Source of the DNA: Eledone cirrhosa | Lineage: Eukaryota | NCBI GenBank assembly: GCA_964016885.1 | Contig: OZ024743.1 | Location: 226,858,001 to 226,922,000 of the forward strand | Reading direction: 5' to 3' | Length of the DNA: 64,000 bases | Shown: piece by piece, positions 3,971 through 52,641 of the stretch | Position numbering within the stretch: the first letter of the stretch is position 1 | How the letters are laid out: each line of letters opens with the position of its first letter | Program-made: the position numbers and the translations under genes | Notes under the pieces: generated by a model | Database searches by the model: none | What the model saw: the letters and a program-made list of their open reading frames with translations, nothing else | Told to the model about the DNA's origin: nothing

Positions 3971-4190
3971 GGCGGTGGATTGGCAGTATCGGTAGAGGGT
4001 CGGACGCCATGCTTTGCAGCATAGAGTTACGGCTCTTTATGATCTGAGCTCAATCCCGCCGAGGTTAAATTTGCCTTTCATCCTTATGGGGTCGATAAAA
4101 TAAAGTACCAGTCACGCACTGGGGTGGATTTAATCGACTTTCCCTTCCCCTCAAATTACTGGCCTTGTGCCTATATAAGAAACCATTATT
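3971..4190 (+). mobile_element. SINE family 1, long subtype
   Basis: Same head and body plus an internal ggggtggatttaatcgactttccc segment. The repeat cattatttaaatga flanks both ends. Confidence 0.88.
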
Positions 4191-5690: not shown

Positions 5691-6882
5691 GGTTTGGAAA
5701 AGAAGAGGCTATTCTCTCAGAGATTTATTGATTCTGTCTCTGACTGAATGTTAGACAGTAGCCCAGACGAAGATTATACGACAGTTTTACCTAGAACTGA
5801 TATGAATAGCAAATAGATGTAACGACCATTCGCTAGCTTATCACATGCAAAAACCAGTTAGAGTGAGATTAAAGAGGAAGAGAAAACTATATATGAACAT
5901 TTAAACAAGTAAATAAATGGAAGAACCAATAAATACAAAAATAAATGAATAGTCGATTAATTTGTCTTATTTGGTGAAAAGAAAATATTCGACACGTGTA
6001 CACACATGAACGCACACAAACATACATATATCATATATAGATATATAGAAATGGAGATAGATAGATGAATACATAAATATATCTATATATTTATTTCCAT
6101 AGAAGTGTTCATATAGGCACACATGTAAAACCGACAGACTCGCACACACACATTTATATATACATATATTTATATCTATATATTTATATCTATATATTTA
6201 TATATATATATGAATGTTTGTATAGTATATTTGATAATATACCGTATGTTTAATTAAAAAACATTTTGAAGACCATTCGCTATGAATTTTAAAGTAGTGA
6301 ATATGTCACTTATTCATTCTCGGCAAAAACAAAGTGGAGTAATAGGAGGTGCTGTTTCTCACTCGTTAGCGGTTATCAAGACTACTTACACCTTCGCTTC
6401 TGCCGAGTGTTATAGGAGATGGATTCTTATAGAATTCCAGTAATGGTTAAGAGCTAATTAAACAGAGCGTTTACATGTCCAGCAAAATTAGGTATTAATA
6501 TTGCTGCTCTAAAATAGCGATGTATATATGAACGTATGTAGTGGTGGACTGGCCAGGTTGCCCAATGGCAACTGTACCCCAGGGGACCCACGGTAGCATT
6601 GCAAGGGTCCACAGTAGCATTGCAGGACCCTCTGTAGGATTTTAGGTGCCAATGCTTTGCTTTCAAAAAATACCTGAAATCTAAGAGAAAGAATAACATA
6701 AAAAAAATAAATAAAACAATTACGCAAAGCATTTGGTCAACCAATTCCCCAGGGAATTACTAGAAACCAAAATATACGATGGGGCAAATAGCTGGAATCA
6801 GTGGTTGTACATTCTACTAAATCTAAAGCTTAGTGTATTCATTCATGCATGCAAACATACATATATAGTCACAGACACACAA

Positions 6883-6918
<36 letters not shown>

Positions 6919-6944
6919 TTGTGTGTCTGCGACTATATATGTAT

Positions 6945-7033
6945 GTTTTCTTAACTATTGAGCGCTTGCCAGCATTTCTACGATTTTGCCTTTCGTTTCG
7001 CTTTTTCTACCAGCCGAAATACGATTCTCGCTG

Positions 7034-7103
<70 letters not shown>

Positions 7104-7898
7104 CAGCGAGAATCGTATTTCGGCTGGTAGAAAAAGCGAAACGAAAGGCAAAATCGTAGAAATGGTGGCAAGCGCTCAATAGTTAAGAAAACTAGAGCTA
7201 AACAATATGTTAAAACGCCATACAAACTGAAAAAGTGGTTAAGAAGGCATTAACCACCTAAGCCAAAACACAAATCAAGCTAAACAGGTCAAACAAAATA
7301 AATGATAAAGACAGACCTGGACCCAAATGGAATTGATGGTAAAATCCAAATGCAGGGTTCCTCTGACACCTAAATCAATAATACTGTCTGCTTAAAACTA
7401 TAAACATTCAGCATAAAGTTTGAACAAGGAATATCACGTTATCAACAGGTAATTTTGCTCTGTAACCAGCTTTGCGAGTGACGCAGAACTTTGTAAACGC
7501 ACATGCGTAAGTCACAAGGGCAAATTACCCATATTTTGGCAAATGAATTCAGTATGTGTATATCATACAAAAAATTGCATAGATAGCACAGATCGAATAA
7601 GCACTCAACCGGGTAGTTTTTAAAATAAACTTATGCAATTAATCTGTCAATAGAATTATTAACAGGATAATTGTAAGACTCGGGAGATTAATACAAATAT
7701 AATTCAGCGAGAATCGTATTTCGGCTGGTAGAAAAAGCGAAACGAAAGGGCAAAATCGTAGAAATGCTGGCAAGCGCTCAATAGTTAAGAAAACTAGAGC
7801 TAAACAATATGTTAAAACGCCATACAAACTGAAAAAGTGGTTAAGAAGGCATTAACCACCTAAGCCAAAAAACAAATCAAGCTAAACTGGTCAAACAA

Positions 7899-7905
<7 letters not shown>
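6945..7905. mobile_element. Non-coding (TA)n-associated element: ~601 bp tandem unit plus a short inverted copy
   Basis: 7100-7303 is repeated at 7701-7905. 6945-7037 is the inverse of 7100-7192 across a (TA)n loop. A diverged relative lies at ~13540-13758. Confidence 0.7.
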
Positions 7906-7929
<24 letters not shown>

Positions 7930-8181
7930 AATGAAAGGTATAGAAAACACTGGAGCGAAAAGCGAACAGCATTCCATAGTATATAAGTGACTATAGCGTC
8001 AAAATGGGAAAAATAGTTAACGTAAGATGTGGGAAAAATAATTTAAACTCATCTTAAAGAGAATCAGGATATAAATTCATCCCCAGAATTTAGTGAAATC
8101 CAGGGAAAAATCAATAGAGCCTTAACTCATGATAAAATAAATTTCAAGATACCTATCCTTCAATTTGGAAAAATTTCAAAT

Positions 8182-8259
8182 GCTCTGTATAGTCGTAAGA
8201 CTATTTCATGAAAACTTTCAGCGGAGATGGTCACGGTTGGAGTTCATCATCAGCAGAGC
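8182..8259 (-). ncRNA. Type I hammerhead ribozyme with full stem III
   Basis: Minus strand: gctctg-CTGATGA-tgaact...agttttcat-GAAA-tagtc ttac gacta-TA-cagagc. Confidence 0.85.
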
Positions 8260-8803
8260 TCAACTCGATAACCAGGATTCTCGCAGATTAATATACCAAA
8301 AAGGGAATTCTAAATCTGGCCAGTCCAACATCATGCGTGATCGCGAAAAATGCACATGAGGAAAAAATGGCTATTGACGTCAGAATAAGACGAAAGTTTG
8401 TTTACAAGAAACAACAGTCAAAAACATTCCGAAAAAAACTCTACAGTAAAGAGTTCAGCAAAATGCAATATTATCGCAGTTTTTTATGAAAAAACCGGGA
8501 TAAGTCACAAATAATTTAAGCACTCGAGGAAAAATCCGAGTATAAATATATAAATGAAAGGTATAGAAAACACTTCAGCGAAAAGCGAACAGCATTCCAT
8601 AGTATATAAGTGACTATAGCGTCAAAATGGGAAAAATAGTTAACTAAGATGTGGGAAAAATAATTTAAACTCATCTTAAAGAGAATCAGGATATAAATTC
8701 ATCCCCAGAATTTAGTGAAATCCAGGGAAAAATCAATAGAGCCTTAACTCATGATAAAATAAATTTCAAGATACCTATCCTTCAATTTGGAAACACTTCA
8801 AAT

Positions 8804-8881
8804 GCTCTGTATAGTTGTAAGACTATTTCATGAAAACTTTCAGCGGAGATGGTCACGGTTGGAGTTCATCATCAGCAGAGC
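8804..8881 (-). ncRNA. Type I hammerhead ribozyme, second tandem copy
   Basis: Same as 8182-8259 with one stem III mismatch (gacta to aacta). Confidence 0.8.
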
Positions 8882-8909
8882 TCACCTCGATAACCAGGAT
8901 TCTCGCAGA

Positions 8910-8956
<47 letters not shown>

Positions 8957-9065: not shown

Positions 9066-12000
9066 TCTTTATTTGCCACAGGGGCGCACAAAAATGGGAC
9101 ATTACAAGACATGACGGCGGGAGTTTTACATAAAAATAACTTTAACTTTAATAAATAACAATAAACTATATATAATAAAATAACAATTGAAATCCCCAGT
9201 AGGGGAGAACGTTACTGCAGGGTTGTTTTACACCCCGTGGATAGAACAACCCTCAACACCAGAAACCCGTTTTGTAGGTGTTCCTCTCTTCCCTCTCTTT
9301 ATTTTCCTCAACCTACAGATTTATATACAGAGAAGGCCCATTCACTCGGGCCATTTTCGCCACATTCACCCACCTTTCAGCGAATTTACTGGGGTGTAGC
9401 ACCTCTCTCTCCCCTCTCACATTCCTTCTGAAGTGGTACTTAAAGAAGGGGATAGGTTGTTGTCCGGAGAGAAAGGTGTTTGCTCTCAGTCCTTTTAACC
9501 TCGTCCACCATATTACCTCTTTCGCCATAGCCACCAGACAGAGGAAAACCACCTCTCCTTCGTTCTTAAATGAAGGCGGTGGGGTGATCCTCACGATGAA
9601 CTCGGCTGACAACTGGATGCGTCCCACACGTGACAGCAGCTGTTCGACATAATTCCACAGGTCGGTCACCCCTGGTAACTGAACAATTGCGTGCAGAACG
9701 GTTTTGATGTCCTGCTCGCATCTTGGACAGGTCCTTTTGGCAGGATCTCTGTCAGGGCGTCCGTGCCTCTCGATTTTGTCTCGAACTGGTAGAGCTCTCG
9801 GTAGCACTGCCAGGCCAGAGACCTCTGGAAGTTATCCATAGGTCCTGGACGGAAAGTCCTCCCGAACAGACTGGTCAGTTCGTCCTCCTCGATGCCTAGA
9901 GTTTCCCCGAGAACGTCGTCGCACTTATCCTACACTAATCCCCTATAGAATGTCGAGTCTCCGCTGATTGCCGTTTCCGCTTGGTAGAGGGCTGTGAGCG
10001 CCTGTAGGCACTCGAGGTGCCAGGCACCCATTTTCGATCTTCGCTTGACCCAGGACTGCAGCTCTGTTAGTGAGACGAGTTGTGGAAGAGCTTGTCTCAC
10101 AAACGACAGCCACACCGGTTCACCGGTCAGGAATACCAGGAGATGGCGTAGCCTCAGCGCATGTTTGCGCATCATCAGCCACGGCATGCCCAGCCCTCTG
10201 TTAGAAGGGTGTTGACAGCAGATGGATCTCCTCACCTATGGTTTCTTCCAGAGGAATTTGAAGAGTAGGCGTTCCATTTTGCTAAGGTATTCGCGGGGGC
10301 AAGGCACGACTATCACGCTATGTAAGTGTTCGCCACATCCGCTCGACCTTTCAAGGAGAGTTTGCACTCAGCCCACTTCTGGGTGAGTGTAATCACCTTC
10401 GCCGTGACCTCGTTCCAGTTCTTGTCCACCTGGAGGTCTGGACCGAACCAGCCCCGAGCAATTTCACCGGTCCTTCCGTACAGCGTCCAAAAAAACTGTC
10501 GGAAGGCATGGGTTTGCCTCTCCATGTGCCGAGTTGCAAACTGACAGACTTGTTTGGGTTTAGTCTATTACCCTGATTTCCGAGGTTTTCGACACCATTA
10601 CGGTTTCCGCAGTCCTGGTTCGATCGGGATGCCCTGCAACAGCTCCAACTTCCGCAGTAACGGCTCGTGAGTCAGTACATACAGAATGGATGAGAGAGGG
10701 CATCCCCAACAGATGGAACGCATGATTTGGAATGGCTCTGATAGGTAGCCATTCACCTTGACTGCCGAGCAGATGCTGGTGTGCATGGCAGCGATCCAGC
10801 CTCTGAAAACGGGACAGAAGCCGGATGTCTTGAGAACTGCTTCCAAGTATTTATGGTCGACCCTATCAAATGCTTTAGACTGATCTAAATTGATCAGAGC
10901 CCCACCAAAGCCAGGTTTACACCCTACCCTCTCTATGATGTATCGCATGAAGTGGAGGTTGCCGTGTATGGACCTCGTCGGGATTGTACACGTTTGGGCT
11001 TCCGCTACCAGGTTCTCGACGACAAGCGCCAGCCTTGCTGCTAACCCCTTGGCCAAAATCTTTAACTCTGTATTGAGCAGAGTTATGGGCCTGAAATTGC
11101 TTATCTCATCCCCCTTGTTCTCATCTTTCCTGATCAGCGTTACTACGCCTCTGCCTACAGAACTGGGAATCCTCCCGTTCTGCTGCCAGTTGCAGTAGAC
11201 CACTTCGAGGACGCCAGAGAACAAGTTTGGTATGCCTATGTAAAACTCATAGGGTAGACCATCTAAACTGGGTGATTTGCGTTTCCCACACCGGCCTAGG
11301 GCATCTTCTATTTTGCCCGCTGTGATCGGCCTTTCGTAGCTCTCCGCATCCGTGCTCGAAGTAGGAGCTGAAGTCACCTCGCTCGATGAACCGCTTTGCC
11401 CGAACAGCTGTGCAAAATGCTGCTGGAAGGCCGAGCACATCTGCTTGGATTCAAGTATAATGCGTCCATCTTTGTCTTGCAAAGACTGAATTGTGGATTT
11501 GTTGCCACTTTTCGCCTCTGCCATCGGGCCCAGCTAACAGATTTGGCTCCCTCGTTTCTTAGAGCACGTGTTCTACTTCTGACAATACAACCTTCGTGTT
11601 TCACGTTGAAGAACTGGTCTACTGCCGTTCTCGCCGCTAGCACGTCAGCTGTACTGCCATTCCTAAGTGCCTCTTCTATACCGGTTCCTTTTAGTTTTGT
11701 TTTTTTCTAACGCTACTTCCTTACTAAATGCTATCGATTCTATTCTAATTGCTCTCTTGAGAGAGCTCCACCACCTGTTGTTGACGATCGCCTCCGTCAA
11801 CTGACACTTAACTAAGTTGCTAATCCGTTTGCAGTAGGCCTTACGCGCCGGGAGCGACATGTTTAGCTTCGGGTCCCTGTTTATGTGTTCTATCAAGATT
11901 GACTACGCAAGTGACTAATTTGTGTTCTGAATAGGCAACCATGTGCATTTGTGGACAACTTAATGTTCCTTATCATTCTGTCTAATTAAAAATCTATCTA

Positions 12001-13758: not shown

Positions 13759-13960
13759 AATATATATATATATATATATTGAAAGGGTAACACACTAGAG
13801 AGAGAAAGAAAGAACGTGTGCCATCAATAAAACAGGGAAAATCACCAGTGTATGGAATCTATAACCTATGGAAGCAGGGTAGACATACAATAATTGAAAA
13901 TATAAATTAACATGCATATACGCAACTTTATATAACACACATAATATATAACTATATAAC

Positions 13961-14044
13961 ACACGCGTACAAATCAAAAGAAGATCTGTTTCGCCAGGAA
14001 ATTGTTGACTGGAATGGGATCGCCTATGGGTCATCAGCGTGTAG
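13961..14044 (-). ncRNA. Hammerhead mirror copy (2-nt deletion in stem I)
   Basis: Reverse complement of 14179-14261 with a few substitutions; core is intact. Confidence 0.7.
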
Positions 14045-14178
14045 TGGTTTTTGGGCTGCCCTTTCTAGCAGCTCGTCCCTCCGATACCACTGGTTCGCTG
14101 TGCTACATACGCTGTCACATCTCTCTGTCACGTGTTGCTGGACGGTTGTCTTAGATTTTCTTAGAGTTGTCTGGAACT

Positions 14179-14261
14179 ACACGCGCTGATGACCCATAGG
14201 CGATCCCATTTCAGTCAACAATTTCCTAGCGAAACAGATCTTTTTGGATTTGTACGCGTGT
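14179..14261 (+). ncRNA. Type I hammerhead ribozyme with long stem III
   Basis: acacgcg-CTGATGA-(stem II ccatagg..cctag)-GAAAC agatc tttttg gattt GTA-cgcgtgt. Stem I is 7 bp and stem III is 7 bp. Confidence 0.8.
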
Positions 14262-14405
14262 GTTATATAGTTATAGAGGTGCGTATATGCATTTTAATTT
14301 ATACTTTTAATTATTGTGTGTCTACCCTGCCTTCCATAGGTTATAGATTCCATACACTGGTAATTTCACCCGTTTTATTGATCGCACACGATCTCGCTCT
14401 CGCTC

Positions 14406-14445
<40 letters not shown>

Positions 14446-14677
14446 TCTAGTGTGTTACCCTTTCAACATATTGTATTTTAAAGAGCTCAGGATTCCTTTC
14501 CCTTCGAACACATAATTTACAGGGAATAACGAGTGTCTATGGCTCCGTTAATTTATCGTGATATATATATATATATATATATATAACGAAGGAAATGTGG
14601 TAAGGAACCAGATGGACCATAACGCACCAAAGTACTCAATACTTAGAGTAGGAGAGTGGGTAATAGGAACGAGTAGG

Positions 14678-14772
14678 ACCCCGACGGCTGAGCTCAAGCC
14701 TTTCGACGGCTAATTCTGGACTAAATGAACATTTTTATCCTGGTACATGAATAGCCGAGCTTCTCAGGGGGT
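14678..14772 (-). ncRNA. Hammerhead-like fold, variant core CUGAGAA
   Basis: acccc-CTGAGAA-gct cggcta...tagccg tc-GAAA-ggct tgagctc agcc-GTC-ggggt. Confidence 0.55.
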
Positions 14773-16256
14773 AATTCCATGTATGGTAAAAGTGATTGTC
14801 ACAGGGATTGGTCAAAAGTTTGTTGTTGAAACACATAATTCTATCATGGCATTTTGTGGACGGAAGGGGTAGCTGAACCTGCCAGTAGAAGAAGGAGGTA
14901 GAGGGAGTGGAGGAAACCCAGTCGTTGATAGTGCCAACTACAGCAGAATCCTAAGGATAAGAGGTCAAGAGAAGTATACTAGGGAGGAGGAGGAGGGGGA
15001 GGAAGTCGAAACAATAAGTAAATCAATAATGGAGTAAATATATAGAAGAATAATAAGAATGTTAAAAATATAAAAAAAAACAATTTCTGCTTACTATTCC
15101 CCTACCACAATCGTCAAGTCTCTCACTGGTACTGCTAAACTATAGAAAAGTTTAATAGGTGGGTGGGATGGAATACTAAATACGAGATTGTAGTGAAAGA
15201 ATTTTATGAGTTAGTAGTAATCGACCAAATCTATCTTACAGTGACAGGTCAACAAGTAGGGGGCCAAAATACTAAAGAAACTACTACGAAATAATAATTC
15301 AGAATCCCGAAAATGAATATTAATACGATATATAAGAGTACCGCTACGATACATAAATTCTAATACAAACTACATAAATGCTCGTACGATATATATGAAA
15401 AATTTAATAAGAAACATTAATTCAGAATACCCCCCCCCCCCCCCCCCAAAAAAAAAAAATAAATACTGATATACGAGAAACTAAAGCAGATATACCACTA
15501 AGAAATCTAGAAAACACGGAAATGGGCAGCAATCGGATAAGAAAGCAAGTATCTGGGGTCTATCACATCTGCTATAAAAAGCGGAGTCGACCAATTCTAT
15601 CATAGAATAGGGTATGAGGTGGGGGTACTGAGGCTACAAAGGACCGAATGGCTGCCTCGGGGTGGGGGAGAAAGTGAAAAGGACGACGACAAAGAAGGAG
15701 AACTGGGGTGGAAGGACTAGGAAGGGATGGCGGGAGAAGGAAATATAGAGGAAACGATGAAAAATATATAAGAAAATCTTACGTCTACCTTTGCAAGCAG
15801 GGCTTACCCATTACAAAGTCGGCAAGTAGGGTGTTACAGCCCTTGTCTACCCCCCCGGGTCATTATGGGGTTTGAGGGCGAGGTAAGTCCTACGCAATCT
15901 GTGTTTGCATGCAGTTACCAGTTCGTCTTTCTTGTTTAGGAGTGGGTCCGTCGAAAACAGCATTTGTAATGTTTCCTCCGAGCATGAATTACACAGACGG
16001 CGTCCTCCCGTGTAAGAGTTGGCTCTGGACAGTAAGCTCCAAGTGAGATCATAGGTTATATTGTTATATTTGAGGCCCCCTTTTATGATTCAGCTGTAGT
16101 TGGCACGACTGGCTTTCCTCCTTCCCTTTCCCTCTTTCATCTACTGGCAAGTTCAGCTACCCCTTCCTTCCACAAAATGCCATGATAGAATTATGTGTCC
16201 CAACAACAAACTTATGACCAATCCTTGTGACAATCGCTTTTAACATATATGGAATT

Positions 16257-16352
16257 ACACCCTGAGAAACTCGGCTATTCATGTACCAGGATAAAAATGT
16301 TCATTTAGTCCAGAATTAGCCGTCGAGACGGCTTGAGCTCAGCCGTCGGGGT
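16257..16352 (+). ncRNA. Hammerhead-like fold, variant core (mirror; GAGAC for GAAAC)
   Basis: acacc-CTGAGAA-act cggcta...tagccg tc-GAGAC ggct tgagctc agcc GTC-ggggt. Confidence 0.55.
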
Positions 16353-16362
16353 CCTACTCATT

Positions 16363-16412
<50 letters not shown>

Positions 16413-16582
16413 TATAGATAGGTAAATATACACGGGTGTGTATGATTGTGTATAGAAGATTATATTAATAAGAGGAATTCCAACTTTGTCTGATTTACTC
16501 GTTTTATTTACAATCCTTTAAAATATATATAATGGTATTATAATGAAATAGTATGATAGAATATTAAATTCTAAGTGTTAAT

Positions 16583-16621
16583 TGAACAAGTACTTTCATG
16601 CTTTCGCAATCTTCAGGTTCA
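16583..16621 (-). ncRNA. Minimal type I hammerhead ribozyme (mirror copy)
   Basis: Exact reverse complement of 22681-22719. Confidence 0.85.
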
Positions 16622-16996
16622 TGATATGTGGTGACAGTCGAGTTTGCAATTTTCAACTGTAATGAGATGGGTAAATTTTCTACCTTTTATACATTTTATA
16701 CAGAGAAAAGTGGCTCCAGAATGCAAAGCCCTGTAAACTGTATTTCGACCAATCAGTGTGTAGTTTCACTGAATTACTACAGCTGATTGGTTTAAGCGTC
16801 ACGGCTGGTTGAGCATGCTAACGACCAATAGTCATATCCAACGTATCAATTGTTTTGCTTTTTTGAAATGATGAAAATAGCATTTTCTATTAATCATCAC
16901 CATCAACATCACTTTTATTATTATTATTATTGTTGTTGTTGTTGTTGTTAGTGGTCGTGGTCATAGTGGTAGTAGAAGTAATACCCCTAGGCGTTA

Positions 16997-19183
16997 TTAT
17001 TGTTCATTTAGCTTGGGTTTGAATTTATCAATAAAATTCTTTTCTTTGATTTTTCTCTTGATTTCATTTGGGCTGTGTAATTTGTAGAATGGGAATATTA
17101 TAAATATTCCCTGACCACATGTTGCCAGGTGGCCGCTTAGGGGTATCTGACGGACATTTGGGTCTCTGATTTGTTGACGGTGTACCCGTGCACGTTCCGA
17201 TAGTGCATTTCCAGTTTGACCGACATATAGTTCTTCACAATTCGGGCATTTAATGCAGTAAATTAGATTTCTGCTTTTGCAGTTCATATTTGCATTTGTG
17301 AATATTTTTCCAGTTTTTGTTTTCATATATTGACCGGCGTGTATGGATTGACATGTGCCGCATCGATTATCATTGCATTTAGATACAGTGAATGATTGGT
17401 CTTTGTTGTTAAGGTCATACTTTGCTTTTGTTAGCAATTGCTTCAAATTTTTTGGCTGTCTTTTACTAAGAGTCAAAGATCGATCTGTGATTAAGCCTTT
17501 TAATTCATTACTTTGAGCAATGATCGGTAGGTTTGCTTTGGCAGTGTTGAAGATATTCTGGTGACATGGGTTGTGTGTCATTATAAATGGTATGACCAGT
17601 TCTTGGTTTCTTCTTCTTTGGGTTGTTCTAAGTTGTTGTATAGGTATTTTTATAGCCCGCTGTATGCCATTTTCTATAAGTAGAGATGGGTATTTTTGTT
17701 TGAGCAAAAATTCTCTTAGTTCTGTTAGGCGTTTGTACCTGGTATTCGTATCTTCTACAATGGTACAAATTCTTCTGGCTAGGCAGTATGGGATGTTGCG
17801 TTTTGTATGAGGTGGATGGCACGACTTAAAATTCAGATATTGATGGGTGTCTGTGTGTTTATAATATATATCCGTGGTAATGGTGGTGTCGTTTTTGATT
17901 ATCATTATATCTAGGAATGGTAATTTGGTCCTACTCATCTCTTTTGTGAATTGGAGAGATGGGTGTAGGTTATTCAGGAGGATATTGAACTTATCCAGAG
18001 TATCTAGAGATTCTGTCCAGATGATGAAACAGTCGTCAAGGTATCTCTTCCAAGATTTTTCAATGTACTTTCTAAAGTCAGTACTATATTTTTCCTCTAT
18101 TTCTTGGTAGAGTTGTTGTTCTAAGTATCCCATTACAGAGTTCGCGTAAACGGGAGCAAACTTCGTTCCCATCGCTGTGCCTCTAATGTGGATGTAATTC
18201 TTTCCATTGAAGAAGAAAGTGTTGTTTTCCAGAATAAGTTTAACTGCGTCTAATATAAATGGCGCTGTGAATCTAATGGGAATCACTTCTCTATGTTTTT
18301 CCACCCAGTATTTAACCGCCTTTATTCCTAAATCATGTGTAATGTTGGTGTAAAGGCTTACCACATCAAAACTGAGTAGAAGTGAATTCGTTTCCGTGGT
18401 TTTGGGAAGATGGGACAGGAAGTCGATATCATCCCGGATGAAACTGGGTATGTGAATACATAGTGGTTTCAAAATAATGTCAACAAAATTGCTTAGACGG
18501 TGAGTGGGGCATGTTGGACCAGCTATAATAGGTCTAAGTTTTAAGTCTTTTGGGTGTAATAATTTAATGTACTCACTGTTTTGTTCTCTTACTGCCAGTT
18601 GTATTTCTTTTGACTTGTGAACTTTCGGTAGGCCATACAGGTTGCTGGGTTTCGGCTCAAAATTGGTGATGTAGTCTCTTTCCTTATCAGTAAATGAGTT
18701 GTGGTATTTTGAAGCCAGGTTGTTGATCTTCTTCATGATGTTGTGGTCTATATTTGACGGTATTTCATGATAGAATGTTGTGTCTTTCAGTTGTTCCTCA
18801 ACCAAATCCTTGTAGTATTCAGTATCCATTATAACAACTGCACCCCCTTTATCTGCTTGTTTAATTATTATTGTTTTATCATTTTGTATACGTTTAAGTG
18901 CAGACATTTCTGATTTGTTAATGTTTGGCCTAACATTAGTATTATGTCTAAGAGGAAATTTAGACAGGATGTCAATGTATTGGTCGAGATAGATATTTCT
19001 TCCTTTTGGCGGAGTGAAATTTGATTTATTCTTTACTAGTGATTCATCACTCTCATTATTTTTATCAGCGAAGAATTCTACAAGACGTAATTTTCGACAG
19101 AATTCTTGGGTATCCTCCTTCAGTTCTTGGTGGTTGACTGTTGGAGTCGGTGTGAATTTCAGTCCTTTTGACAGAATTTGCAT
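16997..19183 (-). CDS. PLE reverse transcriptase + GIY-YIG endonuclease, inverted second copy
   Basis: Same 728 aa ORF. It differs from the + copy at four residues that I can see (F/V, H/Q, K/E, F/C). Confidence 0.96.
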   Translation of the reverse strand: MQILSKGLKFTPTPTVNHQELKEDTQEFCRKLRLVEFFADKNNESDESLVKNKSNFTPPKGRNIYLDQYIDILSKFPLRHNTNVRPNINKSEMSALKRIQNDKTIIIKQADKGGAVVIMDTEYYKDLVEEQLKDTTFYHEIPSNIDHNIMKKINNLASKYHNSFTDKERDYITNFEPKPSNLYGLPKVHKSKEIQLAVREQNSEYIKLLHPKDLKLRPIIAGPTCPTHRLSNFVDIILKPLCIHIPSFIRDDIDFLSHLPKTTETNSLLLSFDVVSLYTNITHDLGIKAVKYWVEKHREVIPIRFTAPFILDAVKLILENNTFFFNGKNYIHIRGTAMGTKFAPVYANSVMGYLEQQLYQEIEEKYSTDFRKYIEKSWKRYLDDCFIIWTESLDTLDKFNILLNNLHPSLQFTKEMSRTKLPFLDIMIIKNDTTITTDIYYKHTDTHQYLNFKSCHPPHTKRNIPYCLARRICTIVEDTNTRYKRLTELREFLLKQKYPSLLIENGIQRAIKIPIQQLRTTQRRRNQELVIPFIMTHNPCHQNIFNTAKANLPIIAQSNELKGLITDRSLTLSKRQPKNLKQLLTKAKYDLNNKDQSFTVSKCNDNRCGTCQSIHAGQYMKTKTGKIFTNANMNCKSRNLIYCIKCPNCEELYVGQTGNALSERARVHRQQIRDPNVRQIPLSGHLATCGQGIFIIFPFYKLHSPNEIKRKIKEKNFIDKFKPKLNEQ

Positions 19184-19333
19184 TTCATCATTGTCAAGAT
19201 CTCTTTTAGATAAATTAATTATTTTAGGATCTACGTGTACAGCTGTTTTGGGTATGTTTCCTCCTGGAGTTTTTCTTTTTCCGGTTTTTGTTGTCCTGAC
19301 GTTAAAAAATGAATTTTTCTCTGTTCAGGATTT

Positions 19334-20071
19334 TCAGCTGAAAAACTACGAGAACTATGGATCGGAGATATCTCAAAAGAAGAAAACAAATCAAGAAAGG
19401 TATGGCAGCAGAAACAATTATTTCTCGATGAATATGCTGCAAATTACGGTAAAGACTCTGGAACCCTGAGAAAAAGCATTAAAAGTGGACAATCTCATCA
19501 ACACAACATACGCCAGAACACGTGCCAACACAAACACTCACCTTACCTTGAATCAAAGAAGAACTACGGTAATAACTCTTCGCTTTTTCTACAAAAACAC
19601 CCTATCGCACACAACATGAACAAAAAGCACAAACACGATAGGTATTCCTTTGACCAGACCATGAGAAGTAGTAAAACCAGGAGATCATTCTCAAGATCTC
19701 AACAGAGACTACCAACAAGGAATGTGGAAACAAAACGTAGAATAACCAGATCACTCTCAAGATCTCAACAGAGATTGCCCACAAGAAACTGGACGAAAAA
19801 ACGATCTAAACCTGAAAGCAAACCTAGGTCATTTTCCCAGATTGTTAAAAATAATGCTAACAGGAAGAAAAATAATATACAGAATACCAAAAATAGGACA
19901 AAATACATAACGAAACCAAATATAATATCACGACCAAAAGTTCATCAAGCGAACACCAACAGGAATATAAATCCTGAACAGAGAAAAATTCATTTTTTAA
20001 CGTCAGGACAACAAAAACCGGAAAAAGAAAAACTCCAGGAGGAAACATACCCAAAACAGCTGTACACGTAG
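19334..20071 (+). CDS. PLE upstream ORF1 (5'-truncated at the inversion junction; basic, R/S/K/N-rich)
   Basis: Manual translation is stop-free from 19334 (SAEKLRELWIGDISKEENKSRKVWQQKQLFLDEY...) into the tracked 151 aa ORF 19616-20071. It overlaps the RT frame over 19978-20071. Confidence 0.75.
   Translation, partial: SAEKLRELWIGDISKEENKSRKVWQQKQLFLDEYAANYGKDSGTLRKSIKSGQSHQHNIRQNTCQHKHSPYLESKKNYGNNSSLFLQKHPIAHNMNKKHKHDRYSFDQTMRSSKTRRSFSRSQQRLPTRNVETKRRITRSLSRSQQRLPTRNWTKKRSKPESKPRSFSQIVKNNANRKKNNIQNTKNRTKYITKPNIISRPKVHQANTNRNINPEQRKIHFLTSGQQKPEKEKLQEETYPKQLYT
19993..19999 (+). promoter_or_regulatory. Candidate -1 ribosomal frameshift heptamer U_UUU_UUA
   Basis: ORF1 codons caT TTT TTA. The -1 frame is the RT frame, which has TGA at 19975-19977 and no ATG until 20119. 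Confidence 0.65.
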
Positions 20072-20118
20072 ATCCTAAAATAATTAATTTATCTAAAAGA
20101 GATCTTGACAATGATGAA

Positions 20119-22305
20119 ATGCAAATTCTGTCAAAAGGACTGAAATTCACACCGACTCCAACAGTCAACCACCAAGAACTGAAGGAGGATACCCAAGAAT
20201 TCTGTCGAAAATTACGTCTTGTAGAATTCTTCGCTGATAAAAATAATGAGAGTGATGAATCACTAGTAAAGAATAAATCAAATTTCACTCCGCCAAAAGG
20301 AAGAAATATCTATCTCGACCAATACATTGACATCCTGTCTAAATTTCCTCTTAGACATAATACTAATGTTAGGCCAAACATTAACAAATCAGAAATGTCT
20401 GCACTTAAACGTATACAAAATGATAAAACAATAATAATTAAACAAGCAGATAAAGGGGGTGCAGTTGTTATAATGGATACTGAATACTACAAGGATTTGG
20501 TTGAGGAACAACTGAAAGACACAACATTCTATCATGAAATACCGTCAAATATAGACCACAACATCATGAAGAAGATCAACAACCTGGCTTCAAAATACCA
20601 CAACTCATTTACTGATAAGGAAAGAGACTACATCACCAATGTTGAGCCGAAACCCAGCAACCTGTATGGCCTACCGAAAGTTCACAAGTCAAAAGAAATA
20701 CAACTGGCAGTAAGAGAACAAAACAGTGAGTACATTAAATTATTACACCCAAAAGACTTAAAACTTAGACCTATTATAGCTGGTCCAACATGCCCCACTC
20801 ACCGTCTAAGCAATTTTGTTGACATTATTTTGAAACCACTATGTATTCACATACCCAGTTTCATCCGGGATGATATCGACTTCCTGTCCCATCTTCCCAA
20901 AACCACGGAAACGAATTCACTTCTACTCAGTTTTGATGTGGTAAGCCTTTACACCAACATTACACATGATTTAGGAATAAAGGCGGTTAAATACTGGGTG
21001 GAAAAACATAGAGAAGTGATTCCCATTAGATTCACAGCGCCATTTATATTAGACGCAGTTAAACTTATTCTGGAAAACAACACTTTCTTCTTCAATGGAA
21101 AGAATTACATCCAAATTAGAGGCACAGCGATGGGAACGAAGTTTGCTCCCGTTTACGCGAACTCTGTAATGGGATACTTAGAACAACAACTCTACCAAGA
21201 AATAGAGGAAAAATATAGTACTGACTTTAGAAAGTACATTGAAAAATCTTGGAAGAGATACCTTGACGACTGTTTCATCATCTGGACAGAATCTCTAGAT
21301 ACTCTGGATGAGTTCAATATCCTCCTGAATAACCTACACCCATCTCTCCAATTCACAAAAGAGATGAGTAGGACCAAATTACCATTCCTAGATATAATGA
21401 TAATCAAAAACGACACCACCATTACCACGGATATATATTATAAACACACAGACACCCATCAATATCTGAATTTTAAGTCGTGCCATCCACCTCATACAAA
21501 ACGCAACATCCCATACTGCCTAGCCAGAAGAATTTGTACCATTGTAGAAGATACGAATACCAGGTACAAACGCCTAACAGAACTAAGAGAATGTTTGCTC
21601 AAACAAAAATACCCATCTCTACTTATAGAAAATGGCATACAGCGGGCTATAAAAATACCTATACAACAACTTAGAACAACCCAAAGAAGAAGAAACCAAG
21701 AACTGGTCATACCATTTATAATGACACACAACCCATGTCACCAGAATATCTTCAACACTGCCAAAGCAAACCTACCGATCATTGCTCAAAGTAATGAATT
21801 AAAAGGCTTAATCACAGATCGATCTTTGACTCTTAGTAAAAGACAGCCAAAAAATTTGAAGCAATTGCTAACAAAAGCAAAGTATGACCTTAACAACAAA
21901 GACCAATCATTCACTGTATCTAAATGCAATGATAATCGATGCGGCACATGTCAATCCATACACGCCGGTCAATATATGAAAACAAAAACTGGAAAAATAT
22001 TCACAAATGCAAATATGAACTGCAAAAGCAGAAATCTAATTTACTGCATTAAATGCCCGAATTGTGAAGAACTATATGTCGGTCAAACTGGAAATGCACT
22101 ATCGGAACGTGCACGGGTACACCGTCAACAAATCAGAGACCCAAATGTCCGTCAGATACCCCTAAGCGGCCACCTGGCAACATGTGGTCAGGGAATATTT
22201 ATAATATTCCCATTCTACAAATTACACAGCCCAAATGAAATCAAGAGAAAAATCAAAGAAAAGAATTTTATTGATAAATTCAAACCCAAGCTAAATGAAC
22301 AATAA
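20119..22305 (+). CDS. PLE reverse transcriptase + GIY-YIG endonuclease (728 aa from first ATG; frame open from 19978)
   Basis: PLE N-terminal motif IINLS..L...E..ILSKGLKFTPTP begins upstream of the ATG. RT motifs: ADKGGAVV, LYGLPKVHK, FDVVSLYTNI, GTAMGTKFAPVYAN, RYLDDCF, LPFLDI, YLNFKSCHP. Cys linker CNDNRCGTC. GIY-YIG: NLIYCIKCPNCEELYVGQT..LSERARVH..E..FI....PKLN. Confidence 0.96.
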   Translation: MQILSKGLKFTPTPTVNHQELKEDTQEFCRKLRLVEFFADKNNESDESLVKNKSNFTPPKGRNIYLDQYIDILSKFPLRHNTNVRPNINKSEMSALKRIQNDKTIIIKQADKGGAVVIMDTEYYKDLVEEQLKDTTFYHEIPSNIDHNIMKKINNLASKYHNSFTDKERDYITNVEPKPSNLYGLPKVHKSKEIQLAVREQNSEYIKLLHPKDLKLRPIIAGPTCPTHRLSNFVDIILKPLCIHIPSFIRDDIDFLSHLPKTTETNSLLLSFDVVSLYTNITHDLGIKAVKYWVEKHREVIPIRFTAPFILDAVKLILENNTFFFNGKNYIQIRGTAMGTKFAPVYANSVMGYLEQQLYQEIEEKYSTDFRKYIEKSWKRYLDDCFIIWTESLDTLDEFNILLNNLHPSLQFTKEMSRTKLPFLDIMIIKNDTTITTDIYYKHTDTHQYLNFKSCHPPHTKRNIPYCLARRICTIVEDTNTRYKRLTELRECLLKQKYPSLLIENGIQRAIKIPIQQLRTTQRRRNQELVIPFIMTHNPCHQNIFNTAKANLPIIAQSNELKGLITDRSLTLSKRQPKNLKQLLTKAKYDLNNKDQSFTVSKCNDNRCGTCQSIHAGQYMKTKTGKIFTNANMNCKSRNLIYCIKCPNCEELYVGQTGNALSERARVHRQQIRDPNVRQIPLSGHLATCGQGIFIIFPFYKLHSPNEIKRKIKEKNFIDKFKPKLNEQ

Positions 22306-22470
22306 TAACGCGTAGGGGTATTACTTCTACTACCACTATGACCACGACCACTAACAACAACAACAACAACAATAATAATAATAATAAAAGTGATGTTGAT
22401 GGTGATGATTAATAGAAAATGCTATTTTCATCATTTCAAAAAAGCAAAACAATTGATACGTTGGATATGA

Positions 22471-22617
22471 CTATTGGTCGTTAGCATGCTCAACAAGCCG
22501 TGACGCTTAAACCAATCAGCTGTAGTAATTCAGTGAAACTACACACTGATTGGTCGAAATACAGTTTACAGGGCTTTGCATTCTGGAGCCACTTTTCTCT
22601 GTATAAAATGTATAAAA
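22471..22617 (+). promoter_or_regulatory. Putative Pol II promoter in the PLE 3' pseudo-LTR
   Basis: Three CCAAT/ATTGG boxes (22473, 22512, 22549; ~38 bp spacing) and two TATAAAA (22602, 22611) lie just upstream of the hammerhead. The same set is mirrored in the left arm. Confidence 0.45.
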
Positions 22618-22680
22618 GGTAGAAAATTTACCCATCTCATTACAGTTGAAAATTGCAAACTCGACTGTCACCACATATCA

Positions 22681-22719
22681 TGAACCTGAAGATTGCGAAA
22701 GCATGAAAGTACTTGTTCA
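22681..22719 (+). ncRNA. Minimal type I hammerhead ribozyme (PLE pLTR)
   Basis: tgaac-CTGAAGA-t tgc gaaa gca t-GAAA-gtac-TT-gttca. Stem I is 5 bp, stem II is GNRA-capped, and stem/loop III is palindromic (AAGTACTT). Confidence 0.85.
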
Positions 22720-22833
22720 ATTAACACTTAGAATTTAATATTCTATCATACTATTTCATTATAATACCATTATATATATTTTAAAGGATTGTAAATAAAA
22801 CGAGTAAATCAGACAAAGTTGGAATTCCTCTTA

Positions 22834-22895
<62 letters not shown>

Positions 22896-23097
22896 GCCAA
22901 TCATTGTAAGTTTGAATCTAACTGACATGCAAAAACATATATATAGAAAAAAGGTAAGCCCAAATCATAGTAGATACAAATATCAGAGAGAGAGAGAGAG
23001 AGGGGGGGGAGAAAAGAGGTGGAACAGAAATAAAACATGGATTACAGTTTAAAATATAGTCTAGATAGATGTAAAACAAAACACTTTGTTTTGAACA

Positions 23098-23385
23098 TTT
23101 TGAAAGTATGTTTATAAGTATGAATTTTCTTAAAATGTTCGTAGTTGTCTCTGTGGCCTAGCGGTAGGTACAAGAAACGGAGGAGATCCTGGCCCTGGGT
23201 TCAATCCTGGTTAGTTTTTATTTTACAGCCAATGAAAAAAATGAAAAGTTTTACCGGGAACCCGACTTCTGACCAGGATCGAACTTCAGACCAGGATCAC
23301 AACCGTCAATGATTCCTCCAACTAGGCCACTGAGTCAACTACAAAAGTATAAAGAAAATTGATCCTTATAAACCTACTTTCAAAA
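23098..23385. repeat. Fold-back unit with two convergent tRNA-like (A/B-box) arms, copy 1
   Basis: Imperfect ~115 bp inverted arms. Plus arm: tggcctagcgg (23154) and ggttcaatcc (23198). Minus arm: tggcctagttgg (23329-23318) and gttcgatcc (23284-23276). Confidence 0.7.
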
Positions 23386-23555
23386 TCAAAGTTAAAAAGA
23401 TGTGGTGTCGTTCATGGCTTTCCTAGAGCTATTAGTAATATTTAAGGTCGACTTGTCACTCTTCTGGCCCTTTGGTAACAACCTTATTATTCCCATGTGT
23501 GTTTAACTGTTGAATTAATTTAATTTAATTTTAGCGAACAAATAATATATGTATT

Positions 23556-25118: not shown

Positions 25119-25452
25119 ATTATTGAAAGTCTCTGAACTTCGCAAAATGCATAATATTTTTTATTGGGAAAGATAAGATGTTTTTCCGCAAAAATCTGAT
25201 TGCACTGATTTGTTTTCACTTATGTATTTTTCGAAAATGTTATTTATTCCTTATAAAAATTAAATGATAGCCACCAATATTTTTAGACCCGACCCGCCAC
25301 TGAATATAGGTATCGCATATTTGATAATATACTGTATATTTAATTAAACATCTTTTGAAGACCGTTCACTCTGAATTTTAAAGTACCGACTGTGTCACTT
25401 ACTTATTCTCGGCAAAATATTTTTAATTAAACATACAGTATATTATCAATAT
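25119..25452. repeat. Fragments of unclassified dispersed repeats
   Basis: 25119-25283 resembles 13297-13508. 25318-25416 resembles 6228-6327 and is followed by a short inverted copy of its own start (25418-25452). Confidence 0.6.
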
Positions 25453-25965
25453 ACTGTATGTTGTTTTATTCTGCCTAGATTTGCGACCGGCAGATAGTAT
25501 TAGTAATTGGAAAGACCAATGGAAACATTGTTTCCTCGGTCTGATTTGACGAGCTCCATCCCATACGTTCAGTGAATGAGGCCTGGGACCTTGTCGATCG
25601 ACTGTTATATATACCTAACAGAAATGATATATGGTGTTATTTCGGGGTAGGTAAACTAGCTTCCCCAAAAACATGATAAGCAATGAAAACATTGTCCAGT
25701 TGTTGAATTTGGATAAAGTAGATCCTAACTGTCTCCACATAGTTCCCTCTTCAACTACAAAGGAAGTCCCTGTCAGCACAGCTTCTTAATGGTGCCAACC
25801 AATTCTGATCACACAAAACGACTATCTTATTTATGACCCCACAAAACGATGCATTTCACATGTATGGTACATACACACAATTTCATCAAATACAACATAA
25901 CCTTTAAAGTGAATTCTCTATCTACTACAATGAGGATACATGTATCCTATCTACTACCATTCGAA

Positions 25966-26149
25966 GGATTTGCAGTATCGGTAGAGCGTCGGTGGCCTAG
26001 CTTTGCAGCATAGAGTTACGGCCCTTTACGATCTGAGTTCAAATCCCACCGAGATTAACTTTGCCTTTCATCGCGGTCGATAAAATAAAGTACCAGTAAT
26101 GTACTTGGTTAATTGCAAGCCTTGTGCCATATCTAGAAGCAATTATTAT
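25966..26149 (+). mobile_element. SINE family 1
   Basis: Matches 985-1172. Confidence 0.85.
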
Positions 26150-29076: not shown

Positions 29077-29154
<78 letters not shown>

Positions 29155-29157
<3 letters not shown>

Positions 29158-29519
29158 GGTCTCATACTACAGCACAACATTTTGGGTAAGGGACTTCAAT
29201 CACAGTTAATGGTCAATCCATATTCTAAGAGTGAAACTATACACATTCTACTTGGGATTCCTTGTTTCTAAATTAAGAATAACAACAGACCAGAGGCAAG
29301 TGGTCAACAGAGAGACAATCCACCATATATATATATATATATATATACATGGTCTCATACTACAGCACAACATTTTGGGTAAGGGACTTCAATCACAGTT
29401 AATGGTCAATCCATATTCTAAGAGTGAAACTATACACATTCTACTTGGGATTCCTTGTTTCTAAATTAAGAATAACAACAGACCAGAGGCAAGTGGTCAA
29501 CAGAGAGACAATCCACCAT
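29155..29519. repeat. Identical 172-bp tandem duplication separated by (TA)n
   Basis: 29155-29326 equals 29348-29519. Confidence 0.9.
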
Positions 29520-31378: not shown

Positions 31379-31994
<616 letters not shown>

Positions 31995-32715
31995 TACTAT
32001 AAGAAAAAATTATTCTTATTCAACCATTTTCCTTTCTCTGTTATATTTATCTCATGTATTCTGAGTCTGGTGAATTTTAAGAGCAAATTATATCAATACT
32101 CTTGGCGTTCCCTAATGCTTTTTATGTTAATTTAATTTCGCGTGAGGGACTGTAAACAAAACGCAAATGCTCATCTCCAAATATATTCTAGCTGTCAATA
32201 AATAAACTGTGAGATTTTGTAAATGACAAAAATAAAAAAGGCATTTGAAAATAATGTGAAGCAAGTAGCAAATAAAGAAACCATAACATACATATAAAGA
32301 AAACAGAAGTGCTGTAAACACTTTAGATATAACTTAGAGGAAAGGAATTGTATTAAGAAAAATATTCGAAAATAAATTATTGTTGTTCGGCCTTGGTCGT
32401 GTAGATATCATTGCAGCAGTAGCAACAACTACTCCATTTATTTGTATATTAACCAACGACCTTGTCCAATGTGTCATTACCTTGATTTACATATTTTGCG
32501 TTTGGTGGATTTAATACATCTCCCAATTTATACAACACCACCTGGCGGTTTAGTGGAAAACATTGTTTCAATAATTCAGGATTGAGTATAAGGTCCTACA
32601 TTCTACCAGTCTCAAAATGATTTGAAAATAGTAACGGTCATGTGAGCGGCCCTCCTCATCCCCGTTAAATTGTAAAAACAAAAATAAGAATTGGTTCTTT
32701 GGTTGCTATTTCTAA

Positions 32716-32903
32716 TAATTGTTTCTACTTTTGGCACAATGCCAGCAATTATCCCAGTGTATTACTGGTACTTTATTTTATCGACCACATAAGGATGAAA
32801 GGAAAAGTTAACCTCGGCGGGATTTGAACTCAGACCATAAAGGGCCGTAACTCTTTGCTGAAAAGCATGGTATCCGTCCCTCTACTGAAGCTGCCAACCC
32901 ATC
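32716..32903 (-). mobile_element. SINE family 1
   Basis: Reverse-complement match. 18-bp TSD gttgctatttctaataat at 32702-32719 and 32904-32921. Confidence 0.88.
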
Positions 32904-33347
32904 GTTGCTATTTCTAATAATAAACAATGAGTTTTAAGATTCCTATTGTAGACTATTGAATTGTAAATTACTGCTCCTTTTAAAATCAAATGAAATAGTT
33001 GTCACAATCACACTGGATGTATTAGTCCTCAACTGAATCTTAGGTCATCGTCAGTCTTGTTATAAACAGCAGCCAAATATCCGGGAAATCACGCACCATC
33101 TTTTTAAGGAAAGAAAAGCGACGTTGAGCATAACTGTGGTCGACTACAAAACTCAAACGCTACTCTCTTCAACGCCACCGTGTGTGTTATACAATGTGTA
33201 TGATGTGGTAAATATTCCATCAATATTGTCCAAATGATGATGCCAGCAACTTTAGAATAATTTATCCAAGGCTTGGACTCAGTGCAATCGTCTCTAACAA
33301 AAATTGAGCTGGCATTAATTAACCACATTATAACATAAACATAAAAG

Positions 33348-33529
33348 GGTGGTGAATTGGCTGTATCGGTAGAGGGTTGGATGCTTTCTAGCATAGTTAC
33401 GTCCCTTTACTGTCTGATTTCAAATCCCGTCGAGGTTAACTTTGCTTCTCATCCTTACGGGGTCGATAAAATAAAGTACTAGTAATGTACTGGTTAATTG
33501 CTGGCTTTGTGCCAAAAGTAGAAACAATA
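33348..33529 (+). mobile_element. SINE family 1
   Basis: Matches 985-1172. TSD tataacataaaca at 33329-33341 and 33530-33542. Confidence 0.88.
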
Positions 33530-33786
33530 TATAACATAAACACGTCATAGGCTTTATCCATTGCAATATCAAACTATAAATTAACATGACAGAATAAGAT
33601 CACATACAATTCAGAGTGTATCTAGGCAAATTTCCGTACAAAATAACTTTTTACTGAGGTGTAAATCATAAAATAAAATACTTAACCAAGTGGTTGTATT
33701 AAGGTAGACATATCTTAGTTCAATATTGGCCTAAACCTATCAAATTTATCAAAGTATGTATGTATTTATGTTCGCATATGTATATG

Positions 33787-33825
<39 letters not shown>

Positions 33826-33828
<3 letters not shown>

Positions 33829-34301
33829 TCTCTGTCCACGTATTGACCTGCTGATAGGTGGTATATTGCCATAGAGATCCTTATTTGTTGGGTGTTCCCT
33901 CCAAGACACGTTTAAAGCAGCACGGAGCATACGTGTGTATGCCCCGTCTAGCTTTTTCTCCAGTTTCGACGTTAGCGTCCAAGTGATAGAGCCATAAACA
34001 AGCACAAATTCCACAGCAGCTCTGAAGAAATTCCTTTTCAGTTTGGCCGGCAGTTTTGATTTCCATATCTTTTCCATTGCATTCAATGCTCCCCAGCAAG
34101 GAAGAAATAGTAGGTGATGTGTTGTTATGGCGTCCATCTCATGGAGCATGAAACGCTGGTCGTCCCAAGAAGACATATGTCAAGCAACTTGAGGACAATA
34201 TTGGATGCACTGCGGAAGAACTGGCAAACACTATGAGAGACAGAGATGGATGGAGGAAACGTGTCCTAGAAAGCCGAGCAAGCTCAACCTGATGATGATG
34301 A
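33826..34301. mobile_element. RTE-clade LINE 3' fragment with an inverted 5' part
   Basis: Minus strand 33826-34097: WGALNAMEKIWKS..FFRAAVEFVLVYGSITWTLT..LDGAYTRMLRAALNVSW. Plus strand 34095-34292: SKEEIVGDVLLWRPSHG..GRPKKTYVKQL..MRDRDGWRKRV..*, then a (TGA)n tail. Confidence 0.85.
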
Positions 34302-34316: not shown

Positions 34317-34757
34317 ACAAGAGATATTTAATTTGTTGGAAATCCAGCAAATATAGATGTTCATAACTGATTTCTGGAGTAAGTATTCAATGATATTAAA
34401 TAAATGGAAACTATATTTATAAAACCATATTTATTCTATTATATATATTTCAAGGGTACCAAAAATTTTGGTACGCTATCATCAGATAAAATACTAAATG
34501 TTTTATAAATATTTGACATGACGAAAGATAATATACCTTAACGGTTCAAGTTATCCCTGGATTTATCGTATCTTACAACTTCAAGTTGTCCCTGACTTTC
34601 CAGGGATAACTTGAACCGTTAAGGTATATTATATTTGGTCATGTCAAATATTTATAAAACATTTTGTATTTTATTTGATGATAGCGTATCAAAATTTTGG
34701 TACGCTTGAAATATATATAATAGAATAAATATAGTTTCCATTTATTTAATATCATTG
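34317..34757. mobile_element. Non-coding palindromic HHR element
   Basis: Inverted arms 34388-34560 and 34600-34757, left tail 34317-34387, TA-repeat flanks. Confidence 0.8.
34432..34493 (-). ncRNA. Minimal type I hammerhead ribozyme
   Basis: tattttat-CTGATGA-t agcgtacc aaaattttt ggtaccct t-GAAA-tatata-TA-atagaata. The mirror copy at 34667-34727 (+) has TTGATGA. Confidence 0.75.
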
Positions 34758-34997: not shown

Positions 34998-36081
<1,084 letters not shown>

Positions 36082-36577: not shown

Positions 36578-36614
<37 letters not shown>

Positions 36615-36655
36615 GAGAGTAAAACAAAGAATCCTTTAATACATCAAAAGTTTTT

Positions 36656-36700
36656 ATTAGCCGACAATGTTTCGTCCTATTAAGGACTCATCAGGGCAAT
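36656..36700 (-). ncRNA. Type I hammerhead ribozyme (mirror copy)
   Basis: Exact reverse complement of 38276-38320. Confidence 0.92.
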
Positions 36701-38275: not shown

Positions 38276-38320
38276 ATTGCCCTGATGAGTCCTTAATAGG
38301 ACGAAACATTGTCGGCTAAT
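38276..38320 (+). ncRNA. Type I hammerhead ribozyme, canonical core
   Basis: attgcc-CTGATGA-gtcct taat aggac-GAAAC att GTC-ggctaat. GUC cleavage triplet and G10.1-C11.1 pair are present. Confidence 0.92.
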
Positions 38321-50769: not shown

Positions 50770-50772
<3 letters not shown>

Positions 50773-51124: not shown

Positions 51125-51153
<29 letters not shown>

Positions 51154-51178
51154 AGATGGTGACATGAACGCACCTCTT

Positions 51179-52411: not shown

Positions 52412-52456
<45 letters not shown>

Positions 52457-52607: not shown

Positions 52608-52641
<34 letters not shown>

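Follow-up and report, generated by a model that had tools for sequence, protein, structure and literature searches.

A Penelope-like element joined head to head with its own copy in a (TA)n run of Eledone cirrhosa: one cDNA folding back, or two?

How does a retroelement come to be paired, back to back, with its own inverted copy? The question is raised by a stretch of 64,000 nucleotides of Eledone cirrhosa (contig OZ024743.1 of GCA_964016885.1, positions 226,858,001 to 226,922,000; hereafter the window, in which all coordinates below are counted), AT-rich animal DNA with many (TA)n runs. Its main occupant appears from sequence features to be a young, 5'-truncated Penelope-like element (PLE) of the Neptune type, lying in a TA repeat back to back with an inverted self-copy. 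A sequence-only reading of the same DNA had taken this palindrome to imply two independently primed complementary DNAs (cDNAs) joined head to head. Such an origin is possible, and in vitro work on another PLE clade lends it support (PMC11167929, accessible text), but it is not implied, since fold-back of one cDNA would also explain the palindrome. Fold-back of a single cDNA explains the junction somewhat better than two separately primed cDNAs do, and we think it somewhat probable.

The left arm (16461-19333, minus strand) and the right arm (19969-22841, plus strand) measure 2873 bp each and differ in an ungapped comparison by 6 mismatches (16807, 16990, 17709, 17992, 18188, 18661) and zero gaps. 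Between them lies a 635-bp spacer (19334-19968, plus strand) of sequence exclusive to the right arm, which carries the frame of open reading frame 1 (ORF1) straight on into that arm; the right arm is indeed 635 bp longer at its 5' side, as had been noted, and the left arm correspondingly shorter. Both outer sides of the palindrome are (TA)n (16365-16410 and 22837-22893), the target of the Neptune clade. The right arm abuts its run directly, with no extension; on the outer side of the left arm stand 40 extra bases (16421-16460, minus strand), then 10 degenerate TA-like bases (16411-16420), then (TA)n. This one-sided 3' extension had been described before as reaching 16461; it is present, and it ends at 16460. 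BLAST returned no further copy of the family elsewhere in the window.

At the tip of the longer arm sits a perfect 14-bp palindrome, TTTTCAGCTGAAAA (19331-19344, centred on 19337/19338), in which bases 19331-19337 mirror 19338-19344. The sequence-only reading had seen it too, and it proves to be the sole perfect palindrome of at least 14 bp in 19320-22836; under a first-order Markov model the chance of one is 7.1e-5 per centre (149 of 2,092,200 centres). The 3-nt AAA/TTT microhomology read at the same junction turns out to be an assumption: the TTT at 19331-19333 is wholly accounted for by the left arm, and the protein record speaks against its being native. ORF1 homologs were reached via a relative, locus L002 (335 matches at E<=0.001, 150 listed; a direct search with ORF1 residues 1-75 gave 2 candidates, neither scored), and 89 of the 150 listed were anchored on an LxxxW motif to compare native with mirrored bases. 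Read as an ORF1 codon, TTT gives Phe, which occurs at that column in 0 of 89 homologs; TCA gives Ser, which occurs in 3, the column holding I, V, T or L in 66. When homologs were left out one at a time, a two-column score as low was obtained in 1 of 89, and for the Phe column in none. The protein evidence against a native TTT-TCA is moderate. Together with the palindrome's place at the end of the longer arm, the lack of Phe in the homologs suggests a remnant of fold-back at 19337/19338. As the simplest reading we infer that 19331-19337 are the fold-back mirror, a stretch of 624 nt in the mirrored arm having been deleted or jumped over where AAA/TTT match over 3 nt.

The account we favour is that of a single insertion of the PLE into (TA)n, built around one long cDNA. 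An endonuclease would cut within (TA)n, reverse transcription primed there would halt inside ORF1 at ~19338, and the 3' end of the cDNA would snap back and copy itself, producing a palindrome centred on 19337/19338. In the favoured version the first strand would be the tailed left arm, and its copy would stop short of the tail, at a TA-like site; this would give a perfect palindrome of 3.5 kb, which would later lose 624 nt of the left arm through a centre deletion joined at TTT, with 7 mirrored bases left behind. Fold-back followed by loss of the centre would thus explain tail, spacer and palindrome with one long cDNA, and we hold this version plausible, if short of probable. Fold-back from the tailed arm would initially give a perfect palindrome of the kind seen at 55907-56330. 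In the second version, which we consider rather unlikely, the first strand would be the right arm, and fold-back would copy 7 nt before a 624-nt jump at AAA/TTT; the 40 nt would then be host DNA, or would stem from a second, short priming event at the target's opposite end. If the tail is of element origin, one-pass fold-back from the right arm fails. The earlier argument that fold-back cannot produce both asymmetries therefore holds for a plain one-pass copy from the untailed longer arm, which gives no tail; it had weighed trimming of an outer end alone and overlooked that loss of the centre of a fold-back palindrome would yield both with one long cDNA.

The extension, 40 nt long or 50 nt with the degenerate TA bases counted, is likely to be element rather than host sequence. 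It fits the canonical length of a PLE tail, and the TA-tail-arm-arm-TA layout is that of all eight neighbouring palindromes described below. In the sense direction it is AC-rich and can form a 6-bp stem-loop (z=-2.57, with 4 of 200 shuffles as strong), on which we place little weight because alternating TG/CA host sequence forms such hairpins readily. In favour of a host origin, the purine-pyrimidine alternation of the extension, 0.69, is reached by 53 of 130 (TA)n flanks vs 69 of 3463 element 40-mers. The window holds no second copy of it at >=70% identity. Pairing with the last 100 nt of the arm was considered as a sign of element origin and dropped as nothing special; equally strong pairing was seen in 80 of 129 controls taken from TA flanks and in 141 of 200 shuffles.

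The sequence-only reading had proposed a census of whether the tailed arm is the longer or the shorter one, and this was carried out within the window. Eight further palindromes were scored (13774-14560, 14586-16364, 34320-34757, 34998-35869, 36610-38466, 50770-51122, 55907-56330, 56351-56504); four inverted regions, older or consisting largely of microsatellite, were excluded from the tally, namely 23097-23386 (68% identity), 25321-25462, the pairs at 6853-7192 that surround (TA)n, and 52386-52789, which is mostly microsatellite. Spacer orientation was taken from strand composition or internal repeats, an approach validated on the main element (+128 bits). All eight are extended on one side by 60-100 nt, up to a TA run, and in three the extension recurs in a second insertion, which marks it there as element sequence. 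A scan found outward-pointing hammerhead-like cores in 4 of the eight; for the other palindromes PLE origin and orientation were assumed or judged by eye. In 6 of the 8 asymmetric palindromes the tail sits on the longer arm (p=0.14), and the main element (16461-22841) and 56351-56504 depart from this. Five of the nine palindromes have arms whose lengths lie no more than 40 nt apart (p ~1e-4 under random re-pairing), among them a perfect palindrome that bears a tail, and a family present in two copies has arms of ~390/410 nt in one and 47/51 nt in the other, so that the lengths appear coupled within a copy. The perfect palindrome at 55907-56330, with its 86-nt one-sided extension and a hammerhead motif, adjoins 56351-56504, a 94-bp hairpin insertion of the 34998-35869 family. 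The census fits fold-back as the usual route and leans away from two cDNAs.

Several smaller structures in the window also involve (TA)n runs. The two inverted pairs at 6853-7192 (6853-6882/6919-6948 and 6945-7036/7101-7192) are centred on (TA)n runs, which suggests either tail-to-tail insertion or a (TA)n end that snapped back once cut; partial-tandem elements follow them at 7101-7905 and 7930-8912. A 118-bp insertion at 52003-52120, flanked by (TA)n on both sides, is built almost entirely from arm end and tail sequence of the 50770-51122 family, and a tiny hairpin of ~26 nt stands between two (TA)n runs at 51152-51178.

The fold-back account must be tempered by several points that weigh against it. 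The tally of tailed and longer arms is not significant, pools different families, and depends for orientation on the composition of the strands or on one repeat; 56351-56504, like the main element, has its tail on the slightly shorter arm. Equal arms could also arise from a coupled reverse transcriptase (RT) dimer or from short RNAs copied to their end, either of which would mimic fold-back. Among the other asymmetric elements, a tip palindrome longer than 8 bp was found in 0 of the 6 tested. At the junction itself, the Ser column taken alone is unremarkable (17 of 89 homologs score as low), 1 of 28 columns known to be native also carries a residue seen in 0 of 89, and the left-arm Gly just upstream is the commonest family residue at its place (31 of 89), a match that may be chance or a hint of a longer hidden homology; with a single family copy at hand, the native sequence upstream of 19338 is unseen. 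The self-priming model published for PLEs, in the accessible text of PMC3846280, uses an antisense RNA template and not cDNA snap-back. Finally, centre deletions in mouse are, as far as the available text of PMC8701086 describes them, mostly small, and a loss of 624 nt with the tip retained would be an extrapolation from them.

Some of these points favour the rival in which long cDNAs are primed on each side of the (TA)n cut, from the tail end on one side and from the internal TA-like site on the other, and their 3' ends anneal and copy each other; the right cDNA would have halted at a native 14-bp palindrome, or gained 7 bases by snap-back before annealing at AAA/TTT. We regard this as possible, though doubtful. 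A recombinant Poseidon-clade protein cuts and extends both strands in vitro, with two RT start sites bounding the tail and a dimer proposed from modelling (PMC11167929, accessible text), and L1 offers analogues both in pairs of 5'-truncated copies inverted and joined at their 5' breakpoints (10.1101/2024.08.27.596794, text in part) and in the annealing of two RT products (PMC11702581, likewise). The 7-base snap-back has a parallel in the 5-34 bp fold-back duplications at DNA ends described for yeast in the available portion of PMC11724301. Each arm has private changes, and the tail stands on the shorter arm both here and at 56351-56504. Two cDNAs would nevertheless demand an extra step, or a coincidence of 7e-5 per centre, to account for the 14-bp palindrome; the native TTT that the proposed microhomology needs is disfavoured by the Phe column; near-equal arms in 5 of 9 palindromes are unexpected under independent truncation; and the arm differences discussed below give no hint of two source copies.

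A broader form of the same idea, which we offer tentatively, is that PLE integration routinely primes both ends of a (TA)n cut at two RT start sites bounding the tail, probably within one dimer, with one or both cDNAs becoming long and the structure being closed by fold-back or by annealing of cDNA 3' ends. If so, this locus would record two cDNAs of 2.9-3.5 kb joined after a 7-nt snap-back, and a genome-wide census could settle the origin of PLE inverted repeats and tails. No paper stating routine two-end priming for PLEs was found in a literature search that took in few subscription papers and not the 2005-2006 PLE reviews.

The arms also speak to the age of the event. All 4 coding differences between them are missense, as expected of unselected change (P=0.39), giving no sign of two different source copies. 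Comparison with 31 homologs places the derived state in the right arm for F175V (F in 29 of 31) and F492C (F or Y in 25 of 31), and in the left arm for Q332H (Q in 31 of 31) and probably for E398K. At 0.2% divergence, against 4-8% for several neighbouring palindromes, the two arms are young and of equal age, and the earlier view of a recent event stands. Equal age rejects insertions of different ages, one of the two conditions under which the sequence-only reading would have been given up, and leaves the choice of mechanism untouched; as a guide between mechanisms the arm differences were set aside as uninformative, private changes lying in both arms. Two separate insertions, the later landing at the 5' end of the first, are the least probable of the explanations considered here. 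PLE endonucleases can target their own sequence, according to the available text of PMC11167929, and window elements do cluster in common (TA)n runs, but the junction is not (TA)n, derived ORF2 changes split evenly (2 and 2), and the same layout recurs in the 8 other scored palindromes.

Five of the 6 arm differences are transversions, and the three that can be polarised (17709/21593, 18188/21114, 18661/20641) each show a top-strand change of T to G within an AATTT context, of which each arm has 25 sites among 1845 A/T positions; the trend was not found in 14 other repeat pairs. This shared context could be a polymerase signature or consensus error. It bears on the improbable alternative that the palindrome is an assembly or library artefact, a fold-back chimera or repeat mis-join, as does the description of such structures as a cause of assembly problems in the accessible text of PMC8557442. 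Against an artefact, the outer flanks differ, the extension belongs to one arm alone, the two arms are not identical (6 differing sites), and nearby lie older palindromes built on the same plan, their arms 4-8% diverged.

What, then, is the element? Each arm holds an open ORF2 frame of 775 residues stop to stop (left 16997-19324, minus strand; right 19978-22305, plus strand) encoding RT, thumb, a zinc-finger-like CX4CxxC linker and, at the C-terminus, GIY-YIG with a CCHH motif whose two cysteines lie between GIY and YIG. Pfam models matched in that order, RVT_1 at E=2.9e-6 (27.6 bits, slightly below its cutoff of 29.6) and GIY-YIG at E=3.5e-6 (above cutoff). Protein homologs number 503 at E<=1e-20 among 7999 candidates; among the matches listed, the best identity is 64-65%, with no close database relative, and the closest named relatives are from bivalves. 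In an alignment of both arms with 31 of 120 listed homologs (33 sequences), C603, C608 and C611 of the linker are invariant, a Neptune feature common to Nematis, and C646, C649, H668 and H685 of the CCHH motif nearly so. A hammerhead-like motif lies ~155 nt from the end of each arm (16583-16621, minus strand; 22681-22719, plus strand), where a pattern scan identified the core, stems I and II and a palindromic loop 3, in agreement with the description available in PMC4209133. Neither copy has an Rfam match at gathering score; by its pattern this would be the minimal hammerhead near the 3' end that marks endonuclease-containing PLEs. The Neptune/Nematis-type label is drawn from sequence features given in the accessible text of PMC8557442.

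Upstream of ORF2, in a -1 relation to it, is the ORF1 remnant (19338-20071, plus strand), comprising the end of the conserved helical part and then a basic low-complexity region. A slippery heptamer, TTTTTTA (19993-19999), stands in phase for a -1 frameshift from ORF1 to ORF2 and recurs at the matching place in the relative L002 (1202-1208); the corresponding FL is found close to the end of 56 of 75 long ORF1 homologs. The left arm begins just 24 nt upstream of this heptamer. No stable structure was detected downstream of the putative frameshift site (z=+1.24, folding without pseudoknots); PMC8557442, in its available part, describes an optional frameshifted ORF1 with a pseudoknot in PLEs, its legend leaving the clades that carry ORF1 unspecified. 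In 46 ORF1 homologs of at least 350 residues, a median of 212 residues precede the first motif retained here. Some 200 ORF1 codons and the upstream pseudo-long terminal repeat (pLTR) are thus absent, and each ORF2 copy has altered conserved residues. Because of the missing codons and the missense changes in each arm, this copy is not self-sufficient, and "autonomous", as it had been called, was an overstatement; the RT ORFs described as intact do have open RT-GIY-YIG frames, with the missense changes already given.

Elsewhere the window carries an open Helitron Rep-helicase ORF of 1216 residues (41200-44850), an RT fragment of another retroelement (10598-11524), a probable restriction-like endonuclease end of another (31454-31840) and a probable LINE C-terminus (33766-34176), all on the minus strand. 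A dispersed SINE-like repeat of ~190 bp has many copies at 80-96% identity (985-1172, 3970-4123, 25966-26145, 32706-32924, 33343-33528, 58065-58191, 63143-63360), and an exact 193-bp tandem duplication at 29132-29519 is bounded by (TA)n. Beyond the window, genome records of prokaryotes contain contaminant contigs with animal PLEs, where 67 pattern matches resolved into 47 loci (L001-L047), the best of them 48% identical; no (TA)n-flanked head-to-head insertion fit for scoring was seen among those viewed, a part of the 47. Some database entries label PLE proteins as symbiont proteins.

The head-to-head layout is published PLE anatomy. As described in the accessible text of Craig et al. 2021 (PMC8557442), PLEs typically insert into (TA)n and carry at the 5' end a 5'-truncated copy in inverted orientation, together with a tail of 30-40 bp that is often confined to one end; the tail is ascribed to endonuclease resolution of an intermediate, and how such repeats and tails arise is there called an open question. 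With the Neptune PLEs of that account our element shares, besides this anatomy with a putative tail, the RT followed by GIY-YIG at the C-terminus, CCHH, the CX2-5CxxC linker, an optional ORF1 with a putative frameshift and a hammerhead-like motif near the 3' end. It differs in that both arms are nearly ORF2-length and there is no direct pLTR tandem.

Classic L1 twin priming inverts without duplicating the 3' end. The L1 cases closest to ours, as available in 10.1101/2024.08.27.596794 and PMC11702581, have either two opposite RT products whose 5' ends are joined or cDNA ends that anneal to themselves; they are rare accidents, usually with rearrangement, whereas inverted duplication is routine in PLEs. 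Among PLEs themselves, Adineta vaga Penelope (Arkhipova et al. 2013, PMC3846280, in the accessible text) has head-to-head junctions that carry palindromes, interpreted as self-priming, an optional tail on one inverted arm, and insertions with microhomology-mediated deletions. Its inverted part is mostly a short pLTR, with self-priming proposed on an antisense RNA; in our element the inverted part measures 2.9 kb, with the proposed fold within ORF1. Anolis Poseidon (Frangieh et al. 2024, PMC11167929, likewise) shares the AT-rich target, the upstream hammerhead and an AC-rich stem-loop at the two RT start sites, and differs in clade and in having a single ORF.

For the later step of the favoured version, the nearest parallel is the stabilisation of palindromes by breaks at their centre. 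According to the available text of PMC8701086, a perfect 15.4-kb palindrome was rearranged in ~35% of offspring, 93% of 118 rearrangements being deletions, mostly small and breaking central symmetry. A perfect palindrome thus gains a spacer through asymmetric central deletion, as proposed here, although the process is known for mouse transgenes and not for PLE insertions. Set beside these systems, the locus has the structure expected for PLEs and leaves their mechanism unsettled; it does provide a usable marker, in that protein homologs can separate native from mirrored bases where a junction falls in a coding region, and, nine palindromes having been scored in 64 kb, a census of fold-back versus two-end priming could draw on thousands of junctions across the source genome.

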